Assembly (NCBI GenBank): GCA_038230295.1
Contig: JBBRNM010000006.1
Location: 1-59,944 of the forward strand
Direction of reading: 5' to 3'
Source of the DNA: Candidatus Limnocylindrales bacterium
Lineage (GTDB): Bacteria > Chloroflexota > Limnocylindria > Limnocylindrales > CSP1-4
DNA length: 59,944 bases
The notes under the pieces were generated by a model. It had not been told where the DNA came from, did not search any database, and saw only the letters and a program-made list of their open reading frames with translations. Of the stretch, positions 5,729 through 50,431 are shown piece by piece (position 1 is the first letter of the stretch; each line of letters opens with the position of its first letter). A program made the position numbers and the translations under genes.

Positions 5729-6718
5729 CCCCGGACTCCGGCACCTCGATCTGGCCGCACTGTGAGCTCCGTCCGGACGCGCGCTTCGACCTTGGTCGTC
5801 GCGCTCTCTGCGCTTGCGATCTCGGCCTGCTCAGCCAGCCCTCCGGCCCCGTCGATTGCACCCTCCCAGGTGTCGGCGCAGCCGTCCTCGACGATCGCGC
5901 CGACCCCGACGGCCTCCCCGGCCCTCACCCCGGGTGTCGGCACCTCGAGCGAAGACACGCTCGGCGTCTCGGTGCCCGCCGACACGGCGGCCGCGACGAT
6001 GCTCCATGTCCCGGTCCTCATGTATCACCGGGTCATGCCCCCGTCGCTGCTCAAGGTCGACGAACGGTGGCCCGACCTCTACGTCGATCCGGTGACGTTT
6101 GACGCTCAAATAGCGGCCATGAAGTCTCGGGGTTGGCACACAGTCACGACGGGCCAGCTGGCCGCCGCCGTCATGGCCCGGAGGAGCCTCCCGTCGCACT
6201 CCGTCGTCATCACCTTCGACGACGGCCGGCCGGACAACTACACCTACGCCTTCCCGATCTTGAAGAAATACGGCTTCGTCGCGACCTTCTTCATCGTCTC
6301 GGGTCGGATCGGAAGGACCAGCCACATCACGGCAAGCCAGCTCCAGGAGATGGCAGCCGCCGGGAACGAGCTCGCCGATCACACCTGGGACCACACCGAT
6401 CTCACGACCCTGACCTACGCCCAGGCGCGGTTCAGGATCCGGGCCGCCGCCGACGCCATCGAGTCGCTTGTCGGCGTTCGACCGACCACCTTGGCCTATC
6501 CCTACGGTCACTACGACTCGACCGTCCTGGCGGCCGCCGACGCCGAGGGAATGTACCTGGCCTTCACGGTCCATGCCGGGGCCTGGGAAAGCGCCGCCAC
6601 CCGGCTCTTCCAGCCGCGGCTCCGCGTCCAGGGCCTCGTCCGACAGGCCGATGGGAGCTACTCGGGCGGAACGACCGCGCAGCAGCTCCTCGCCCGGCTG
6701 GCACCGTATGCCGACTAA
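5630..6718 (+). CDS. Polysaccharide deacetylase (CE4/NodB) lipoprotein; the native start may be GTG 5762
   Basis: Lipobox AISAC, S/P/T linker, VPVLMYHRV, ITFDDG, DHTWDH, LAYPYG. Confidence 0.9.
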   Translation: MTRELVERARGGDREVFESPAAAVIGNLFNIAQPRTPAPRSGRTVSSVRTRASTLVVALSALAISACSASPPAPSIAPSQVSAQPSSTIAPTPTASPALTPGVGTSSEDTLGVSVPADTAAATMLHVPVLMYHRVMPPSLLKVDERWPDLYVDPVTFDAQIAAMKSRGWHTVTTGQLAAAVMARRSLPSHSVVITFDDGRPDNYTYAFPILKKYGFVATFFIVSGRIGRTSHITASQLQEMAAAGNELADHTWDHTDLTTLTYAQARFRIRAAADAIESLVGVRPTTLAYPYGHYDSTVLAAADAEGMYLAFTVHAGAWESAATRLFQPRLRVQGLVRQADGSYSGGTTAQQLLARLAPYAD

Positions 6719-42510: not shown

Positions 42511-42572
42511 GCTCCGAGTGTATCGACCCGGGCTCGCTTGACAGCCGGCGGCCCCGGGCGTCCCCTGTGGCC

Positions 42573-43646
42573 ATGACGACTCGACGGCCGGGCCGCCGCG
42601 CGGGACTCACCGCGGCGCTCGCGCTGACCCCGATCGCGGCGTGGCGTTTCGCGCACGCCTATCGGGCGCGGGCCGGGTATCCGCGGCAGCACCTCCCGAC
42701 CGCGGATCCAGGCGCGCTCGGCCTTGCCTTCGAGACCGTGGTCGTCCCATCGCCGGAGACGGACGGGCTTCCGGCGTGGTTCATTCCGGCGGCAGCGGGC
42801 GGCCCGGCGCCGGCGGTCCTGCTCATCCACGGCTGGGAATCGGCGCGCGACCGGACGCTGCCGAACGCCCTGGTCCTGCATGCGGCGGGCTTCCACGTCC
42901 TCACCCTCGACGTTCGAGCCCACGGCGCGAACCCACCCGAGCTCCTGCCGCTCACGGCCGGCGAGTTCGGCGCCGACGCGCTCGCGGGCGTCCGCTACCT
43001 GCTGGACCGCGCGGACGTCACGTCGATCGCGATCCTCGGTCACTCAATGGGCGGGATCGGCGCCCTCCTGGCCGCCGCCGCGGAGCCGCGCGTCGGGGCC
43101 GTTGTCGCGATCTCCACGCCAGCCGATCCCTACCGTCTCACCCGCCAGACCTTCCACCTGGCGAACCTGCCGCTGCCGGACGTCATCGCCTACCCGCTTG
43201 CGTGGCTGACCACCCGAGTCTTTCTCGCCCCGCGCGGGCACGACGTGCGCTCCGTCTCGGCGAGCGAGGCGGTCGCGCAGTACGAGGGTCCGATGCTCCT
43301 CGTCCACGGGACGGACGATCGAGTCGTCCCCTACGCCCACATGGCGCGGCTCGCCCGACGGGCTCGCTCCGCTCGAGCAGGCGACCCTGCGGCACAACCT
43401 GTCGAGACCCTGACGATTCCCGGCGGACATCACAGCTGGCTCTTCGAGGCGCCGGCGTACCGGGCGGCGATCGGTGGATTCCTGGCCCGCGCCCTCGGCG
43501 GGCCACTCACGCCGGAGGAAGCCGCGGCACGCGCCGAGGCCGTGCCGGCGGTCAGGATGCCCGACATCGGCCCGACGGGCTTCTCGGCGATGGACGACGA
43601 GCCCGGCGGAGTCCGGACGCTTGTCCGCGCGATTCGCGACGCCTGA
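42573..43646 (+). CDS. Alpha/beta hydrolase
   Basis: LIHGW, GHSMGG, LVHGTDDRVVP, GGHH; TTGACA-N17-TCCCCT-N6-ATG upstream. Confidence 0.92.
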   Translation: MTTRRPGRRAGLTAALALTPIAAWRFAHAYRARAGYPRQHLPTADPGALGLAFETVVVPSPETDGLPAWFIPAAAGGPAPAVLLIHGWESARDRTLPNALVLHAAGFHVLTLDVRAHGANPPELLPLTAGEFGADALAGVRYLLDRADVTSIAILGHSMGGIGALLAAAAEPRVGAVVAISTPADPYRLTRQTFHLANLPLPDVIAYPLAWLTTRVFLAPRGHDVRSVSASEAVAQYEGPMLLVHGTDDRVVPYAHMARLARRARSARAGDPAAQPVETLTIPGGHHSWLFEAPAYRAAIGGFLARALGGPLTPEEAAARAEAVPAVRMPDIGPTGFSAMDDEPGGVRTLVRAIRDA

Positions 43647-43667: not shown

Positions 43668-44189
43668 GTGGATACCTGGACCGCGATCCGGATGAAGCGG
43701 ATGGTTCGCACCTTCGAGGCGCGGCCGCTCGGCCCGGAGCATCTCGAACGAATCCTCGACGCCGGCCGCCATGCAGGCAGCTCGAAGAACCTCCAGCGCT
43801 GGGACTTCATCGTGGTGGACGACCGCGACCACCTGCGCGCGCTCGCGGCGGTGGGCCCGTATGCCGGACACCTGGCCGGGGCAGCTGTGGCGGTCGCGCT
43901 CGTCACGCCGGATCCGTCGCTGCCAGGCAGCGCCCTGTCGATCACGTGGGACCTGGGCGTCGCGGCCCAGAACATGATGCTGGCGGCCTGGGAGCTCGGG
44001 ATCGGCAGCTGCCCGGCCACGGTCTACGAGCAGGCACTCGCGCGGGAGCTGCTCGGCTACCCGGAGGACCGGGCCTGCGAGTACCTCATCTCGTTCGGCT
44101 ACCCGGCGAACCCGGAGGACCTCACTCGTCCGCTGCGCCAAGGAGGTCGTCGACGGCTGGCGGAACTGATCCATCTGGATCGATGGTGA
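43668..44189 (+). CDS. Nitroreductase family protein
   Basis: RMVRTF, AGSSKNLQRWDF, DLGVAAQNMMLAAWELGIGSC, FGYP. Confidence 0.93.
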   Translation: MDTWTAIRMKRMVRTFEARPLGPEHLERILDAGRHAGSSKNLQRWDFIVVDDRDHLRALAAVGPYAGHLAGAAVAVALVTPDPSLPGSALSITWDLGVAAQNMMLAAWELGIGSCPATVYEQALARELLGYPEDRACEYLISFGYPANPEDLTRPLRQGGRRRLAELIHLDRW

Positions 44190-45400: not shown

Positions 45401-45894
45401 GACGGCCTCGGGTCGGTGTCGAGGACGACGGTCGACGGCTCGCCGGACCGAGCCCCGGTGAAGTGCCGGCCGCGCCCGAGCGGTCCACCGGCCGGGATGC
45501 CGAAGGCGCCGGGTGCCGGCCGGGCGCCTGACCGGACCGTGACAAAGATCGCCCCGATGCCCTCGCCGTGCCGAGCCAGGAATGCAGCGAGGCGGCCTTC
45601 GGTGTCGGGCTCGAGGACCACCACAATTGGTTCGCCGGCTGCACCGGATCGAGAAACCGCCGCGCGAGCCCCGAGGAGCGCGTCCCTTGGCGCCTCGGTC
45701 CACGAGCCGCCGTCGCCGATCGCATCGCCCAGCTCCCGCTCGGCACGTTCCAGGTCGACGGTCGCCCAACCGATCCCGACCAGGTGGGCCTCCTCGACGC
45801 CCGGGCTGTCGTGCCCGAAATCGGCGAGGAGGGCCTCTCCGGCCGCAACAAGCTCTTTCCAGGCTTCGGCCCTGCGGCGTTCTGGATCGCTCAT
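45397..45894 (-). CDS. VOC/glyoxalase-like protein (divergent)
   Basis: IGWATVDLERA...VLEP..EGRLAAFLARHGEGI resembles epimerase/VOC motifs; metal ligands not evident; coupled on both sides. Confidence 0.6.
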   Translation of the reverse strand: MSDPERRRAEAWKELVAAGEALLADFGHDSPGVEEAHLVGIGWATVDLERAERELGDAIGDGGSWTEAPRDALLGARAAVSRSGAAGEPIVVVLEPDTEGRLAAFLARHGEGIGAIFVTVRSGARPAPGAFGIPAGGPLGRGRHFTGARSGEPSTVVLDTDPRPS

Positions 45895-46736
45895 TGCAGT
45901 AACAGGTCCGGAACCGCATCGCCGATCACAGCGAAGCCAAGGCCCTCGTAGAACCGTCGCGCCGGCTCGTTGTCCAGCTCGACCGCGAGATGGACGAACG
46001 TGGTGCCGGCCTCGAGCGCGTCGGCGACGGTCAGCGCCGTGACCAGGGACCCGAGACCGCGCCCGCGGCGGTCGGGCCGCGTACCGATCGACGACAGGTA
46101 GGTGCCATCGGCAATGGTCGCCCGCCGGGCAACCGCGACGGCGTCGCCGTCGTCGCGCGCAATGAGGATCGAGCAGCCGCTCCGAGCCGCGCAGGCGAGG
46201 ACATCCGTCTCGAGGGAAACTCGCCTGAGGGGATCGATGGCGAACGCGGCCGCGAGCACGGCTGCGGCATCGGTCGCCCATCCCGGACCGATCTGCGACG
46301 CGCCGTCGGGATGGCGCTCGATCACGAGCCGCCCGGCGGCGCGCGCCTTCCAGGCCGTGACCACGTCACGGCACGGCGCGGGATCAGCCAGGACCATCCG
46401 CCGGTCGGCACCCACGCGGTGAAATCCCGCCCCCACGAGGCGCTCGACGATGTCTGGAGGCTCATTGCCAACCGGCAACGGCCGTACGTGGGGCGCACGA
46501 TCGAGCGTCGCGAACAGCGTGATGACCTCGTCGAGGCGGCGATCGAATTGTTCCCGAGCCGCGGGCCAGCGGGGGGCGACCAGCCGGTTCCAGAAGGGCT
46601 CCGGGTCCGCGGGATCGTGGAGCAGCCAGCCATCACCGAGGTCCCGCAGCTCGCGGCCGAGGGAGAGCTGCGCGCGCGCCTCGTGAACGAGGAGCCGTCG
46701 CGCCAGCGCCGGGTCGTTGAGCGTCGGCTCGGCCAC
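45891..46736 (-). CDS. GNAT family N-acetyltransferase
   Basis: IGTRPDRRGRGLG, NEPARRFYEGLGF; TATCGT 6 nt before the GTG. Confidence 0.9.
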   Translation of the reverse strand: MAEPTLNDPALARRLLVHEARAQLSLGRELRDLGDGWLLHDPADPEPFWNRLVAPRWPAAREQFDRRLDEVITLFATLDRAPHVRPLPVGNEPPDIVERLVGAGFHRVGADRRMVLADPAPCRDVVTAWKARAAGRLVIERHPDGASQIGPGWATDAAAVLAAAFAIDPLRRVSLETDVLACAARSGCSILIARDDGDAVAVARRATIADGTYLSSIGTRPDRRGRGLGSLVTALTVADALEAGTTFVHLAVELDNEPARRFYEGLGFAVIGDAVPDLLLQ

Positions 46737-46857
46737 GCCCGAACGATAGCGCGCGCCCGGACGATGACGCGGGACACCGCGGCCGGCCGCCATCGCCTGG
46801 GACGGGACCCGGGCCCCGAGCCGTAATAACCGGCTACATCGTGGTAGCATGTCGGAG

Positions 46858-48918
46858 ATGCAGACGCTCGCCCGACCCATCGGCCTCGGGCTCGCCGCGC
46901 GAGGCGACCCGGCGGATGCCGTGGAGTGGGCGCGCCGCGCCCGTGATGCCGGCCTCGAGTCGGTCTGGACGCACGACTCGTACTTCGAGCGCGATGCGGT
47001 CACCTTCTCGACGGTCATCGCCCAGGCCATCGCTGCCGACGGTGGTGACCCCGGATTTCGGGTGGCCCTCGGCGCCCTGAACCCGTACACCCGCCATCCC
47101 GTTGTCCTCGCGATGACCGGCGCCGCGCTCGACGAGATCCTGCCCGGCCAGATCGTCATGGGTCTCGGGACGGGCCTGCCGCTCCGGCTCAAACAGATGG
47201 GCATCCCCTACGACCCCGCCACGGCCGTGGGCCGCGTGTCTGAGGCGATCGACCAGGTCCGCGTCCTGTGGGCTGGCGAGCGCCTGCCGTCCTCGACCCC
47301 GGGCCTGCCGCCGATCCAGCCGATGTTCGCGCCGACCCACCGAATCCCGATTTCGATCGCCGCGTATCGCAAGGAGTTCGTCGCGCTGGCCGGCCAGAAG
47401 GCCGACGGCTATCTCGCCCGGCCTGCGGAGTCGATCCCATCGCTGCGCGGGATCCTCGAGCGGCTGCGGACAGCCGCGACCGAAGCGGGCCGCGACCCGG
47501 ACTCGATCGAGACGGCCGGCTACCTGCTCTCCCTGGTCGACCGAACGCGGCGCGAGGCGCTGAACCGGGCGAAGCGCGAGCCCTTCGTGATCTACATGAT
47601 GTCGGTCCTGTCGGACATCTCCCTCGGCCGAGCGGGCTTCGAGCCGGAGCTACGCGACCGGATCGCGACGGCCTGGCGGGCCGAGGACTACACGACCGCC
47701 GGCAACCTCATCCCCGACGAGCTGCTCGACGCGTTCATGCTGTGCGGGACCCGCGAAGACGTCGCCACGAAGGCGATGGCGTTCCACGTCGACGCCGGCC
47801 TTGGCCTGCCCCTCCTCCAGCCGGTCCTCCAGGAGGACGCCCAGGTCGACGCGCTGCTCGCCGCGGCGACGCTCTATGCCGAGGCTCCCGAGCCGGTGCG
47901 CGAAGGTGCCACGGACCGGCGAGCGACGACGATGGCCGAGGTGCGGGCACCGAAGGCGGGTGCGCTCGCGGGCGCCCTCGCCGACGATCGACGCCTTGGA
48001 CGGGTCGAAGCCGGGCGACGCCGGCTCGGGGCGACCTGGGAGATCTTGCGGCCCTTCGCCTACACCGCCTCGGTGATCCCGGTCCTCGCCGGCGCGGCCC
48101 TCGCCTACGTCCACGGCGGCTTCACCTTCCTGCCGTTCCTCGCTGCGCTGGCCGGCGCGATCCTGCTCCACTCCGGGACGAACATCGTCAACGAGGTCTA
48201 CGACGTCCGCCAGGGCATCGACACGATCATTTCGCCGCGGGCCAGCCACGCGATCGTCAAGGGCCGCCTGACCGAGCATGCCGCGCTCATCACCGCCGTG
48301 ATCGCGTTCTCGATCGCGGTGGCCGTCGGGGTGTACCTCGTCCTGCTTCGTGGGCCGGCGATCGTCGTCCTCGGCCTGATCGGCCTGGTTGGCGGCTGGG
48401 GCTATACGGCGCCACCGCTCCAGTACAAGTACCGCGCCCTCGGCGTGCCCCTGGTATTCCTGCTGATGGGTCCGCTGATGGTCGTCGGGACGTACTTCGC
48501 GGTGACCGGCGATTGGAGCTTCGACGCCCTCTTCCTGTCTGTGCCCGTGGGTCTCCTCGTCGCGGCGATCCTCCACGGCAACGAGTGGCGGGACATCGGT
48601 GAGGACACCCGTGCCGGGATCGTGACGCTGTCGTCGCGGCTCGGAAAGGAATGGGCTCACTACGGCTACGTCGGGCTCGTCCTGGGGGCCTACGTGACCC
48701 TCGGTCTCGCCGTCGCGTTCCGGCTCCTGCCGCCGGCGACGCTCCTCGCGATCCTGTCGCTGCCGTTCCTCGCCCAGGTGGTCCGCTCCGCCGAGCTCGG
48801 CGCCAGCGGCCAGACGCGGGCGATTGCGATGATCGACCTCCAGACGGCCCGCCTGCACCTCGCGTTCGGTGCGCTGCTCGTGCTGGGCGTCCTGCTTTCG
48901 GGCGTCCTGCGTGGCTGA
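46858..48918 (+). CDS. Fusion: LLM-class flavin/F420-dependent oxidoreductase + MenA/UbiA prenyltransferase
   Basis: N-half ESVWTHDSYFERD, NPYTRHP, GLGTG, LAGQKADG; C-half LRP..ASVIP, NIVNEVYDVRQGID, YTAPP..YKY, NEWRDIGEDTRAG..TL and multiple TM helices; one uninterrupted frame. Confidence 0.88.
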   Translation: MQTLARPIGLGLAARGDPADAVEWARRARDAGLESVWTHDSYFERDAVTFSTVIAQAIAADGGDPGFRVALGALNPYTRHPVVLAMTGAALDEILPGQIVMGLGTGLPLRLKQMGIPYDPATAVGRVSEAIDQVRVLWAGERLPSSTPGLPPIQPMFAPTHRIPISIAAYRKEFVALAGQKADGYLARPAESIPSLRGILERLRTAATEAGRDPDSIETAGYLLSLVDRTRREALNRAKREPFVIYMMSVLSDISLGRAGFEPELRDRIATAWRAEDYTTAGNLIPDELLDAFMLCGTREDVATKAMAFHVDAGLGLPLLQPVLQEDAQVDALLAAATLYAEAPEPVREGATDRRATTMAEVRAPKAGALAGALADDRRLGRVEAGRRRLGATWEILRPFAYTASVIPVLAGAALAYVHGGFTFLPFLAALAGAILLHSGTNIVNEVYDVRQGIDTIISPRASHAIVKGRLTEHAALITAVIAFSIAVAVGVYLVLLRGPAIVVLGLIGLVGGWGYTAPPLQYKYRALGVPLVFLLMGPLMVVGTYFAVTGDWSFDALFLSVPVGLLVAAILHGNEWRDIGEDTRAGIVTLSSRLGKEWAHYGYVGLVLGAYVTLGLAVAFRLLPPATLLAILSLPFLAQVVRSAELGASGQTRAIAMIDLQTARLHLAFGALLVLGVLLSGVLRG

Positions 48919-49603
48919 GGCGGCTCTGGACGCGGGGCTCGGCGCGGACGGCGCCGACGGCCCGGGCAGGATCGCCCTCGCCGTCGCCCTTGCGGCGGCC
49001 GGCGGCGCATTCGGCGCAACGTTCCGCGGTCCTCGGGAGCGGTTCTGGTCGCGGATGACCCTGACCGGGATCGGGCTCGGGAGCCTCGCAATCGCGACGT
49101 CAAGGCCGGCGCGGCGAGCGCGGCTCCGTTGGTGGCACCTGCCGATCGGACTGGCCTCCGCGGCCGTCCTGTACGTGACGTTCCAGCTCGGCGACCGCTT
49201 CGCGCGTCGGTTCGTGCCGAGCGGCGACCGCGAGATCCGCGAGATCTACGACCTGCGGACGCTCCGACCGCGGGAGGAGATCGCGACGCGCCTCGCGACG
49301 ATCATCGGGCCCGCCGAGGAGCTGTTCTGGCGCGGGCTCGTACAGTCGGCACTGATGCGCCGCTATGGCCGCTGGACGGGCGCGGCTCTCGCGGCCGCGG
49401 CATACGGCGGCGTGCACGTGGTGTCGGGCAACTTCACCTTGCTGGGCGCAGCGGGGATCGCCGGTGCCCACTGGTCGGCGCTGTATGCGGCCGGCGTGCC
49501 GCTCGGCGCCCTGATCGTGAGCCACGTCGCCTGGGACGTCTGGATCTTCCTTGTCCAGCCGACGGGCGAGATCGAGCTTGTCCCCTACGGTGCGGCCAGG
49601 TAG
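48911..49603 (+). CDS. CPBP/CAAX (Rce1-like) intramembrane glutamic endopeptidase
   Basis: GPAEELFWRG, YGGVH, IVSHVAWD; overlaps the stop of the fusion gene. Confidence 0.92.
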   Translation: MAEAALDAGLGADGADGPGRIALAVALAAAGGAFGATFRGPRERFWSRMTLTGIGLGSLAIATSRPARRARLRWWHLPIGLASAAVLYVTFQLGDRFARRFVPSGDREIREIYDLRTLRPREEIATRLATIIGPAEELFWRGLVQSALMRRYGRWTGAALAAAAYGGVHVVSGNFTLLGAAGIAGAHWSALYAAGVPLGALIVSHVAWDVWIFLVQPTGEIELVPYGAAR

Positions 49604-49686: not shown

Positions 49687-49713
49687 TGCAACCCTTGGGT
49701 TGCTTACCGTGTT
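49687..49713 (+). promoter_or_regulatory. Putative ECF promoter with an embedded palindrome
   Basis: TGCAACC...CGTGTT before sigma-3; perfect inverted repeat GCAACCC-TT-GGGTTGC at 49688-49703. Confidence 0.5.
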
Positions 49714-49723
49714 GAAGGTGCTG

Positions 49724-50431
49724 ATGGACACCGACGCCACGCTTACCGCCCGACTCGCCCACGACCTTGACGCCGCGTTCCCGACGCTCGTCGAAACCCA
49801 CCAGGACCGGCTCTACACGATCGCGCTCCGACTGCTCGGGGATCCGCGCGACGCGGAGGAGGTCGCCCAGGACGCGCTCGTGCGCGCCTACCGCGCGATG
49901 TCGGCGTACCCGGCACGACGGATCGCCGAGCTCCGGCTTCGACCGTGGCTCGCCGCCATCACGGTCAACCTGGCCCGGAACCGGCGGCGGCGCCTCGCCG
50001 AGCGACATCCGCCGGTCCAGCTCGATCCGCTTCTTGGCGCCGGCTTCGAGCCGGTGGAGGAGCAACCGGGCCCGGCCTCGCTCGCGACACGCCGCGAACG
50101 CATCGAGGAGCTCGCCGAAACCATGCTTCGGCTCCCGCCGGCCATTCGCATCGCCGTCGTCCTCCGCCACGTCGACGGGCTCTCCGTCGCCGAGACCTCG
50201 GAAGCGCTCGGGCGGCCGGAAGGCACCGTGAAGGCCCAGGTCTCCCGCGGGCTCGATCGGCTGCGCCAGCTGCTCGACGACTCGGAAGCTCAGGCCTCGG
50301 TCACGGCGCACGACACCGAGCTGTCAGGCTCGCCGCCGCGACCGCGCACGGCCGCTGTCGATCCCGCCCACACCGCAGCTCCCCCTTCGACCGAGGGCCG
50401 CGCGTTCGCGGCCGCCGAGGTGCTCCGATGA
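49724..50431 (+). CDS. ECF RNA polymerase sigma factor (sigma-3) with a C-terminal extension
   Basis: DAEEVAQDALVRAY, RPWLAAITVNLARN, GLSVAETSEALGRPEGTVKAQVSRG. Confidence 0.95.
   Translation: MDTDATLTARLAHDLDAAFPTLVETHQDRLYTIALRLLGDPRDAEEVAQDALVRAYRAMSAYPARRIAELRLRPWLAAITVNLARNRRRRLAERHPPVQLDPLLGAGFEPVEEQPGPASLATRRERIEELAETMLRLPPAIRIAVVLRHVDGLSVAETSEALGRPEGTVKAQVSRGLDRLRQLLDDSEAQASVTAHDTELSGSPPRPRTAAVDPAHTAAPPSTEGRAFAAAEVLR

Follow-up and report, generated by a model that had tools for sequence, protein, structure and literature searches.

The animal menadiol prenyltransferase UBIAD1 takes as its acceptor a pre-formed, reduced naphthoquinone (menadione) that its organism does not synthesise, and exogenous 1,4-dihydroxy-2-naphthoate (DHNA) is used by bacteria without head-group synthesis of their own. 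In phylloquinone synthesis, the quinone reductase NDC1 is reported to act between the prenyltransferase MenA and the methyltransferase MenG (PMC8133638). Quinone reductases that use reduced cofactor F420 (F420H2) have been described as FDOR-A proteins and as Fqo; the FDOR-A protein Ddn reduces menaquinone with F420H2, and Chloroflexi are among the confirmed producers of F420 (PMC8498797). According to a survey, known quinone pathways appear to be missing from many Chloroflexota, and there may be additional quinones (PMC13386864). Here, we describe a two-gene locus in a stretch of 59,944 nt from a Candidatus Limnocylindrales bacterium of the phylum Chloroflexota (assembly GCA_038230295.1, contig JBBRNM010000006.1, positions 1 to 59,944; hereafter, the window), in which a gene joining a luciferase-like monooxygenase (LLM) domain to a MenA/UBIAD1-like domain of the UbiA superfamily overlaps a gene encoding a CPBP (Rce1-like) protein.

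The reading that we prefer, at slightly better than even odds (about 0.55), is that this module carries out a non-canonical menaquinone-type prenylation with a built-in F420H2 quinone reductase and constitutes a conserved two-gene unit of uncultured Chloroflexota. Its hosts are the Limnocylindria and several other families. In the mechanism that we propose, the C-terminal domain, working at the cytoplasmic face of the membrane, would join a polyprenyl chain to a head group of the naphthoquinol type, while the Mer-like N-terminal LLM domain, tethered in the cytoplasm by a flexible linker, would draw on F420H2 so that either the head group or the demethylmenaquinone product stays reduced as a quinol, the state that both the prenylation and the subsequent methylation by MenG would need.

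Domain architecture of the fusion gene

The fusion gene is a single open frame on the forward (+) strand of the window, 46849/46858-48918, for which the list of open reading frames (ORFs) gives 689 or 686 aa depending on the start codon: the ATG at 46849 yields 689 aa, and the ATG at 46858 yields the 686-aa version of the public protein collection (P0001). The original prediction of one ORF of about 687 aa combining an LLM domain with a MenA/UbiA domain was borne out, as both Pfam domains scored above their cut-offs. In the 689-aa numbering used for the Pfam positions, Bac_luciferase covers residues 17-313 (E 6e-43, 147.7 bits against a cut-off of 27.9) and UbiA (PF01040) residues 409-642 (E 1e-30, 107 bits against 34.2). 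NCBIfam models aligned over comparable regions, with Mer-like F420 LLM models at about residues 9-337 and MenA-type models at residues 391-685, none of them over its cut-off. The LLM domain, a luciferase-like TIM barrel that is Mer-like and probably F420-dependent, as judged from NCBIfam, Protein Data Bank (PDB) sequence and fold matches, is encoded at 46858..47877 (+). It is followed by a linker of about 50 aa (47878-48027, about residues 341-390) and by the MenA/UBIAD1-like membrane domain (48028..48915, +).

The AlphaFold2 model of the fusion, built from 29 sequences, had a mean pLDDT of 83.8 and a pTM of 0.57 and contained two well-folded domains. The linker was predicted to be disordered (pLDDT below 50 at residues 347-380) and was unconserved in the alignment of relatives. 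The UbiA domain was modelled as long helices over residues 382-683, mostly with high pLDDT, and is thus predicted to be polytopic and all-helical. Among the 29 aligned sequences, 137 columns were invariant, with strong conservation in both domains.

Distribution of the fusion

A word-indexed protein search with the fusion returned 2280 matches. Among the matches listed, at least 120 were full-length relatives of 672-702 aa with both Pfam domains and 77-100% identity, from sources that include 'Chloroflexi/Chloroflexota bacterium' and 'Candidatus Limnocylindrales'. The fusion was found in 36 of 401 sampled Chloroflexota genomes, belonging to nine families, a count that takes in two unpublished genomes (G344, G145). 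In 32 of the 36 there was one full-length match without internal stops, and in G187 two abutting matches lay in one open frame; in G115, G100 and G145, the halves of the fusion were located on two contigs each, which looks like assembly breaks in fragmented genomes. The distribution was patchy even inside the window's own family, where 9 of 24 genomes (G000 included) carried the fusion. A scan with one genome per species yielded 498 stretches encoding a relative. The best 80 of the 498 were all metagenome-assembled genomes (MAGs), encoded a full-length fusion in 80/80 cases, and were labelled Chloroflexota or Limnocylindr-, except for one Sulfomarinibacteraceae. The exception (L094, DATIUS010000011.1), a MAG labelled Candidatus Sulfomarinibacteraceae, carries a fusion gene 78% identical to that of the window, and this odd assignment may stem from binning or labelling.

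In a library clustered at 50% identity, the only other full-length fusion representatives were P0121 (59%) and P0130 (53%), accompanied by fragments; these were followed by MenA-like proteins without a fusion partner (about 300 aa, 35-51% identity) and by LLM proteins (about 330 aa, 35-49%). The small number of full-length representatives at this level of clustering indicates a family that is large but compact. Likewise, in the domain tree, 29 fusion UbiA domains and one 374-aa fragment formed a single clade (SH-aLRT 99).

These data bear on the concern, raised with the original prediction, that the fusion might be unique to this assembly, an assembly or annotation artefact created by a lost stop codon between two genes. 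The probability of such an artefact is negligible: the public full-length relatives come from independent sources, the 32 intact matches lie in other genomes, the species representatives are uniformly full-length, and all fusion UbiA domains share one clade. A lost stop codon is ruled out by the public relatives, the 36 of 401 genomes and the 498 species-representative stretches together. The original prediction knew of no description of this architecture; our searches of the published literature on its domains, F420, menaquinone, Limnocylindria and Chloroflexi likewise found none.

For the comparisons of gene content given below, a panel of 79 genomes was used, composed of 34 with the fusion and 45 without it. 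The fusion-free genomes were hand-picked from the same families, with all sampled ones from families f1-f4, f18 and f27 and some from f17, f55, f51 and f10, while four unpublished genomes and two that were less than 65% complete were left out. All panel genomes are MAGs of 76-99% completeness, and the present assembly is 92% complete. As the genomes are related to each other and the fusion-free set was hand-picked, the panel counts overstate independence and are given as a pattern, not as a statistic.

The CPBP partner gene

The CPBP gene occupies 48911..49603 (+) and encodes 230 aa from the GTG at 48911 (244 aa if the GTG at 48869 is used). Its start overlaps the TGA stop of the fusion (48916-48918) by 8 nt (48911..48918, +), an arrangement that suggests translational coupling of the two genes. 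The protein matched the Pfam Rce1-like family (PF02517; E 2e-10, 41.1 bits against a cut-off of 22.4), and it passed the cut-off of no named NCBIfam CPBP family. Translation confirmed EELFWR (49316-49333), YGGVH (49403-49417) and HVAWD (49523-49537), all on the + strand, which we take to be the CPBP motifs EExxxR, (F/Y)xxxH and HxxxN/D of this protein; residues E136, E137, R141, Y165, H169, H205 and D209 were invariant in 23 sequences. The overlapping CPBP gene with intact motifs that had been noticed at first sight was therefore confirmed. At 24 related loci with an assignable CPBP start (the window's own locus L020 excluded, L049 included), the overlap with the fusion stop was 4 nt in 10 and 8 nt in 5, figures biased towards overlap because the candidate start nearest the fusion stop was taken.

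The linkage, which the original prediction had proposed to check, proved strict. It was counted with tblastn; the ORF picker often took an opposite-strand shadow ORF instead of the CPBP gene. A CPBP gene lay directly 3' of the fusion on the same strand at 28 of 30 sampled-genome loci, the two misses being sequences that end 42 and 160 nt past the fusion; without L049, from an unpublished genome, 27 of 27 testable sampled-genome loci were positive. The gene was also found 3' of the fusion at 78 of the best 80 species-representative loci (the two misses end 0 and 19 nt past it) and at 72 of 80 metagenome loci, where all eight misses had less than 200 nt of downstream sequence. Considering testable loci only, the linkage was 28/28, 78/78 and 72/72. 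In the panel, this CPBP subfamily (E<=2e-49) was present in 33 of the 34 fusion genomes, always adjacent to the fusion, and in none of the 45 fusion-free genomes (0/45), which gave three local matches only (E 3e-5 to 9e-4). The sole miss was G137, where the fusion is situated at a contig edge.

The partnership extends beyond the fusion. The nearest unfused relatives of the UbiA domain, P0145-like proteins with 50-52% identity (loci L168-L170), were also followed directly, on their 3' side, by a CPBP gene of the same subfamily with 38-44% identity and all motifs. For example, at L169:4001-5584 (+), 4 nt separate an unfused MenA-like gene (303 aa) from the CPBP gene after it, and the organization in L168 and L170 is similar. 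The CPBP partner of the unfused relative scored 61.7 bits against the Pfam Rce1-like family, no LLM match was present within loci L168-L170, and a lookup of the clusters of these relatives returned automatic names only. We infer that the CPBP gene belongs to the prenyltransferase clade and that the LLM domain was added later. Judged from sequence and linkage, the CPBP protein is an obligate partner of this clade with an intact predicted glutamic-hydrolase site, and it may have a catalytic role there. Among the 14 proteins retrieved when longer CPBP sequences were sought, there was no clear case of a UbiA-CPBP fusion; one candidate, P0234 (422 aa), composed of a UbiA C-terminus and a partial CPBP domain, was read as a fragment or a miscalled ORF. 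A complex prediction of the UbiA domain (residues 385-686) with the CPBP protein gave a score of 0.00 without controls and counts neither way on binding.

The strict, apparently translationally coupled linkage and the three invariant catalytic motifs are what would be expected if the UbiA domain prenylated a peptide or protein and the CPBP protease trimmed it as Rce1 trims CAAX proteins, as had been suggested. We regard this as very improbable. We know of no UbiA-family enzyme that prenylates peptides, no conserved small ORF or other peptide-maturation gene was found near the module in the 21 loci compared, and both the MenG linkage described in the next section and the MenA/UBIAD1 likeness of the domain indicate a small-molecule quinol. 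Beyond the presence of the CPBP gene, CAAX-like processing found no positive evidence.

Quinone genes in fusion and fusion-free genomes

When the panel was compared for quinone genes, MenB and MenD each passed their cut-offs in 1/34 fusion genomes (G178 in both cases) versus 15/45 fusion-free genomes; in the window's own family, MenB was present in 1/9 genomes with the fusion versus 9/15 without it. MqnA/D (PF02621), of the futalosine route, passed in neither set (0/34 and 0/45). MenG was over its cut-off in 32/34 fusion genomes versus 25/45 fusion-free ones, the two fusion genomes without it (G109, G100) both being highly fragmented; it was found in 15 of the 16 MenB genomes and in 11 of the 30 genomes with neither MenB nor the fusion. 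Canonical MenA adjoined MenB wherever MenB was present.

In the genome of the window itself, none of MenB, MenD, MqnA/D and MqnC was over its cut-off, with 138 bits against 342.7 for the best MenB-like match and 79 against 244.2 for the best MenD-like one. With the known head-group pathways missing, the ring would be scavenged (e.g., as DHNA or naphthoquinones) or made by a novel route. A MenG gene is present on contig C12 (208 bits against a cut-off of 158), not near the fusion, as is the complex I subunit NuoH, and together they imply that this genome needs and methylates a quinone. The separate canonical menA gene for which a check had been proposed was absent, no other MenA-like gene being found in this genome at E<=1e-15. 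Its other UbiA-superfamily genes were a CtaA-CtaB fusion and a small paralogue. The former (L001:2-1582 (-), on contig C78 of G000) apparently encodes a CtaA-like heme A synthase and the CtaB heme O synthase in a single ORF cut short by the end of the contig.

In 11 of the 34 fusion genomes, the only MenG over the cut-off abuts the fusion or its CPBP gene. It is divergent from the module in G376, G288, G041, G128, G191, G110, G137, G328 and G017; in G194, the order is fusion-CPBP-MenG on one strand, and in G115, MenG is convergent. MenG was also adjacent in 28 of 80 metagenome loci. The earlier remark that no men genes are nearby thus holds for this window, whereas elsewhere MenG abuts the module. 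This proximity of MenG to the fusion or CPBP gene points to a menaquinone-type product rather than to an exotic lipid or a peptide, and the non-standard lipid or peptide acceptor of the original prediction was not borne out.

A different product has nevertheless to be considered. The module could make another prenylated redox lipid or a specialised metabolite (phenazine-like, hydroxy-aromatic or deazaflavin-related), with the LLM domain tailoring the acceptor and the MenG-like methylation being incidental. This would fit a UbiA domain that lies outside the canonical MenA clade and under the MenA equivalog cut-offs, the presence, in addition to the module, of a full Men set in G178 and of other MenA-like paralogues in no fewer than 11 fusion genomes, the absence of any known head-group pathway, and the suggestion of the Chloroflexota survey that other quinones may await discovery where known pathways are lacking (PMC13386864). 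We nonetheless consider it unlikely. Where MenG abuts the module it is the sole copy over the cut-off in the genome; the fusion is the only MenA-like gene of the present genome, which has complex I and MenG; and no further conserved biosynthetic gene was seen near the module in 21 loci. In this comparison of neighbourhoods of about 18 kb, beyond the CPBP gene, and MenG in some lineages, only lineage-specific synteny was observed, involving a phosphoribosyltransferase, a formyltransferase, GlcDEF-like genes, PlsY, a histidine kinase, PanE, a CDP-alcohol transferase and an ABC transporter.

The prenyltransferase domain

The best NCBIfam families of the UbiA domain were all MenA-type (158-160 bits against cut-offs of 264-277). 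In a tree of 72 UbiA domains, the fusion clade (SH-aLRT 99) was placed apart from the canonical MenA clade (99) and from a third MenA-like clade (100), the one with the N-terminal domain of about 150 aa described further on; for this tree, L049 was left out, representatives were trimmed to their last 305 residues, and a distant paralogue pair from G306 served as the root. The possibility that the gene simply acts as a housekeeping MenA with no conserved CPBP partner probably applies in one respect and was contradicted in the other: the module probably does serve housekeeping quinone synthesis, but the CPBP linkage is conserved and the domain falls outside the canonical MenA clade.

The only PDB sequence match of the UbiA domain was UBIAD1 (8djk, E 5.9e-24), and its alignment with the fusion is informative about the motifs NEVYD (48190-48204), NEWRD (48580-48594) and GIVTL (48616-48630), all on the + strand and checked by translation. 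UBIAD1 reads ...YYDFSKGID where the fusion reads ...VYDVRQGID, and NNTRD...AGIVTL where the fusion reads NEWRD...AGIVTL, so that neither the first motif nor GIVTL is unusual within the MenA/UBIAD1 branch. What sets the family apart is a conserved Glu, second in each of the two Asp-rich motifs of the Mg/diphosphate-binding type; residues N445, E446, D449, D455, N575, W577, R578, D579 and D583 were invariant in 29 sequences. The motifs that had been pointed out as deviant are present, NEWRD differing from NNTRD, while the first motif is nearly identical and GIVTL the same in UBIAD1; the notion that deviant motifs imply new chemistry was largely rejected on these grounds.

The redox domain and cofactor F420

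The LLM domain resembles F420-dependent enzymes in every comparison made. Its 13 best NCBIfam families were all F420-type, with Mer (PRK02271) at the top at 130.9 bits, compared with 34.2 bits for the best FMN-type family. All 10 PDB sequence matches were F420-dependent or LLM proteins (Mer, FGD, Adf, F420-dependent hydroxymycolate dehydrogenase and another LLM), including Mer 1z69 at E 1.7e-27, and the eight best fold matches were Mer, with target-normalised TM scores of 0.80-0.89. Although the domain is thus probably F420-dependent, the identification of the gene as Mer was rejected (130.9 bits against a cut-off of 276, and 106.9 against 348.7), and the domain reached the cut-off of no specific NCBIfam family. 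In a bacterial, membrane-tethered context, tetrahydromethanopterin is an unlikely substrate. A check for F420 biosynthesis genes had been proposed, and CofD, the one such gene searched, was over its cut-off in this genome (289.5 bits against 257.45) as well as in 77 of the 79 panel genomes.

The fusion of the LLM domain to an enzyme that handles a polyprenyl chain raises a further possibility, namely that it acts on the isoprenoid tail, saturating a prenyl unit with F420H2 to give MK-n(H2) as MenJ does in actinobacteria, or that it is a regulatory F420 sensor. Partly saturated menaquinones do occur in cultured Chloroflexota. However, an unactivated alkene is a chemically unfavourable target for hydride from F420H2, the tail reductases known so far are FAD enzymes with a different fold, and known relatives of the fold in the parallel fusion described below reduce activated substrates, quinones among them, so that we hold a role on the tail or as a sensor to be quite improbable.

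A parallel fusion with an FDOR-like domain

A separate MenA-like clade with a conserved N-terminal domain of about 150 aa (type-b) was identified in 22 of the 79 panel genomes, three of which also carry the LLM fusion and two of which carry MenB. Examples are found at L070:3655-5043 (-), L074:2245-3645 (-) and L072:2654-3982 (+), as well as in L071, L073, L075 and L076. The type-b N-domain had no Pfam match at E<=0.1, and the protein atlas gave weak leads only (best score 0.83, with a PNPOx cluster at rank 20). It was placed by fold search only: the best matches of its model (pLDDT 83.3) were the F420-bound split-barrel FDOR-B structures 5jab and 5jv4 (E about 1e-4, TM 0.45-0.53), a moderate likeness to FDOR proteins. 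In G124, the type-b gene, too, is close to MenG, with the end of its N-domain at C17:5839 and the start of MenG at 6644. This parallel fusion strengthens the idea of a redox step coupled to prenylation; together with the F420-type LLM domain and CofD, it supports in outline the redox tailoring that the original prediction had proposed.

Regarding other N-terminal additions, metagenome MenA-like proteins were observed with a cupin domain (P0187) or a weak PNPOx_N match (P0179, P0235, P0265), and an HTH_17 DNA-binding domain was among the additions in P0187, P0179, P0235, P0265 and P0151. An alignment (A1) of the type-b N-domain with the N-termini of P0172, P0179, P0187, P0216, P0235 and P0265 was discarded as not alignable (13-19% identity), and alignment A2 was used instead. 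G106 bears two MenA-like genes within 3 kb, the type-b gene at L070:3655-5043 (-) and, at L070:1119-2135 (-), a paralogue of 339 aa that is nearest to NCBIfam PRK05951 and weakly resembles chlorophyll synthase.

Neighbouring genes

In the window, a GNAT acetyltransferase gene (45891-46745, -) is divergent from the fusion, and homologues of it (cluster c7) were situated 5' of the fusion in 5 of 21 neighbourhoods (window included), all from the window's own family. Also 5' of the fusion are a nitroreductase-family gene (43668-44189, +) and an alpha/beta-hydrolase gene (42567-43646, +), whose homologues (clusters c8 and c6, respectively) recur in several own-family neighbourhoods. Directly 3' of the CPBP gene, an ECF-type sigma-70 factor gene is located (49700-50431, +), with homologues in the corresponding region of 3 of 21 neighbourhoods (window included).

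In other lineages, GlcDEF-like genes, encoding two FAD_binding_4 proteins and one CCG/4Fe-4S protein, lie 3-6 kb from the fusion in family f18 (L063:1996-4616 (+), L065-L067). Upstream of the unfused MenA-like gene, L169 has three GlcD/GlcE/GlcF-like genes on the same strand and L168 a GlcF-like ORF, while L168, L169 and L170 all have an AcrB-family transporter gene downstream on the opposite strand. The proximity of the GlcDEF-like genes may be accidental synteny or may reflect a connection with quinone use.

Weighing and significance of the proposed role

Besides the relatedness of the panel genomes, several observations weigh against menaquinone-type prenylation with a built-in F420H2 reductase. 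No source of the head group was identified, and nothing accounts for the need of a hydrolase. The UbiA domain scored below the MenA equivalogs NF004751/NF004749 (158.5 against 264 and 160 against 277) and TIGR00751 (90.0 against 102.15), whereas the canonical MenAs beside MenB in G253 and G178, from the same bacterial family, pass the MenA cut-offs (298.6 and 291.3; 221.6 and 202.1), so that the fusion is a paralogue whose acceptor could differ. G178 has the full classical set (MenB, MenD and MenA) in addition to the module, and at least 11 other fusion genomes have further MenA-like paralogues; the module is therefore not simply the sole way to prenylate. MenG was adjacent in only 2 of 80 loci of the window's own clade, and it is not adjacent in this window. 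Finally, as the LLM domain reached no LLM family cut-off, F420 use is a likeness and not a test, and we know of no LLM enzyme that reduces quinones.

Soils and fresh waters harbour abundant Limnocylindria and related Chloroflexota, and all 80 best loci came from MAGs, with no cultured members. The module offers a testable handle on the quinone gap of the Chloroflexota, of which many appear to have no known pathway according to the survey cited above (PMC13386864), while the present genome has complex I and a quinone methyltransferase. Where the tested Men and futalosine head-group genes are absent, a MenA-like enzyme stands in place of the canonical one and is tied to a putative F420-type reductase and a dedicated predicted membrane hydrolase. 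If the proposed role is correct, cofactor F420 would be linked to respiratory quinone synthesis, the module would parallel, in bacteria, the logic of UBIAD1 (reduction, then prenylation) and that of NDC1 (reduction, then methylation), and it would give the first small-molecule-pathway context for a CPBP protein.

More speculatively, the module might be the core of a third, undescribed route to menaquinone-type quinones in a large part of the uncultured Chloroflexota, in which neither the Men nor the futalosine pathway would supply the ring and steps driven by F420H2 and by an intramembrane hydrolase would be required around prenylation. Such steps could, for instance, activate or release a head group that arrives oxidised or conjugated, and the FDOR-MenA-like fusion could be a second solution to the same problem. 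We put forward both the route and this example of it as tentative ideas that are on balance unlikely.

Comparison with known systems

When compared to MenA, the fusion shares the UbiA-superfamily membrane fold, MenA-type best families and both Asp-rich motifs; a genomic linkage to MenG is seen in several lineages, and rarely in the window's own clade. It differs in scoring below every equivalog cut-off, in forming a separate clade and in bearing an N-terminal LLM domain of about 340 aa; in addition, it is never situated beside MenB and is always followed by the CPBP gene. With the animal enzyme UBIAD1, the fusion has in common GIVTL and a nearly identical first motif, and a pre-formed naphthoquinone acceptor would correspond to the situation that we infer for the fusion by analogy. 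UBIAD1 is about 300 aa long, without a fused redox domain or a CPBP partner, and the Glu second in both motifs belongs to the fusion.

Regarding the redox step, Mer and other F420-dependent LLM enzymes are the closest to the LLM domain by sequence (1z69) and by fold, in contrast to its score far under the Mer cut-off. Ddn and the other FDOR-A proteins offer a parallel in F420H2-driven quinone reduction in F420-producing bacteria (PMC8498797), which the fusion may resemble in function; they have a split beta-barrel fold instead of the LLM fold and are not fused to a prenyltransferase. NDC1/NdbB would occupy the same place in the pathway as that proposed here, reducing a demethyl-naphthoquinone ahead of MenG (PMC8133638). 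It is a separate protein of an unrelated fold (type II NAD(P)H dehydrogenase) that uses NAD(P)H, so that the likeness is one of presumed function only. Likewise, the CPBP protein resembles the Rce1/CPBP glutamic intramembrane proteases in its Rce1-like match over the cut-off and its invariant EExxxR, xxxH and HxxxD motifs, while it differs from them as a 230-aa protein with its own conserved N-terminal half that is tied to one MenA-like clade.

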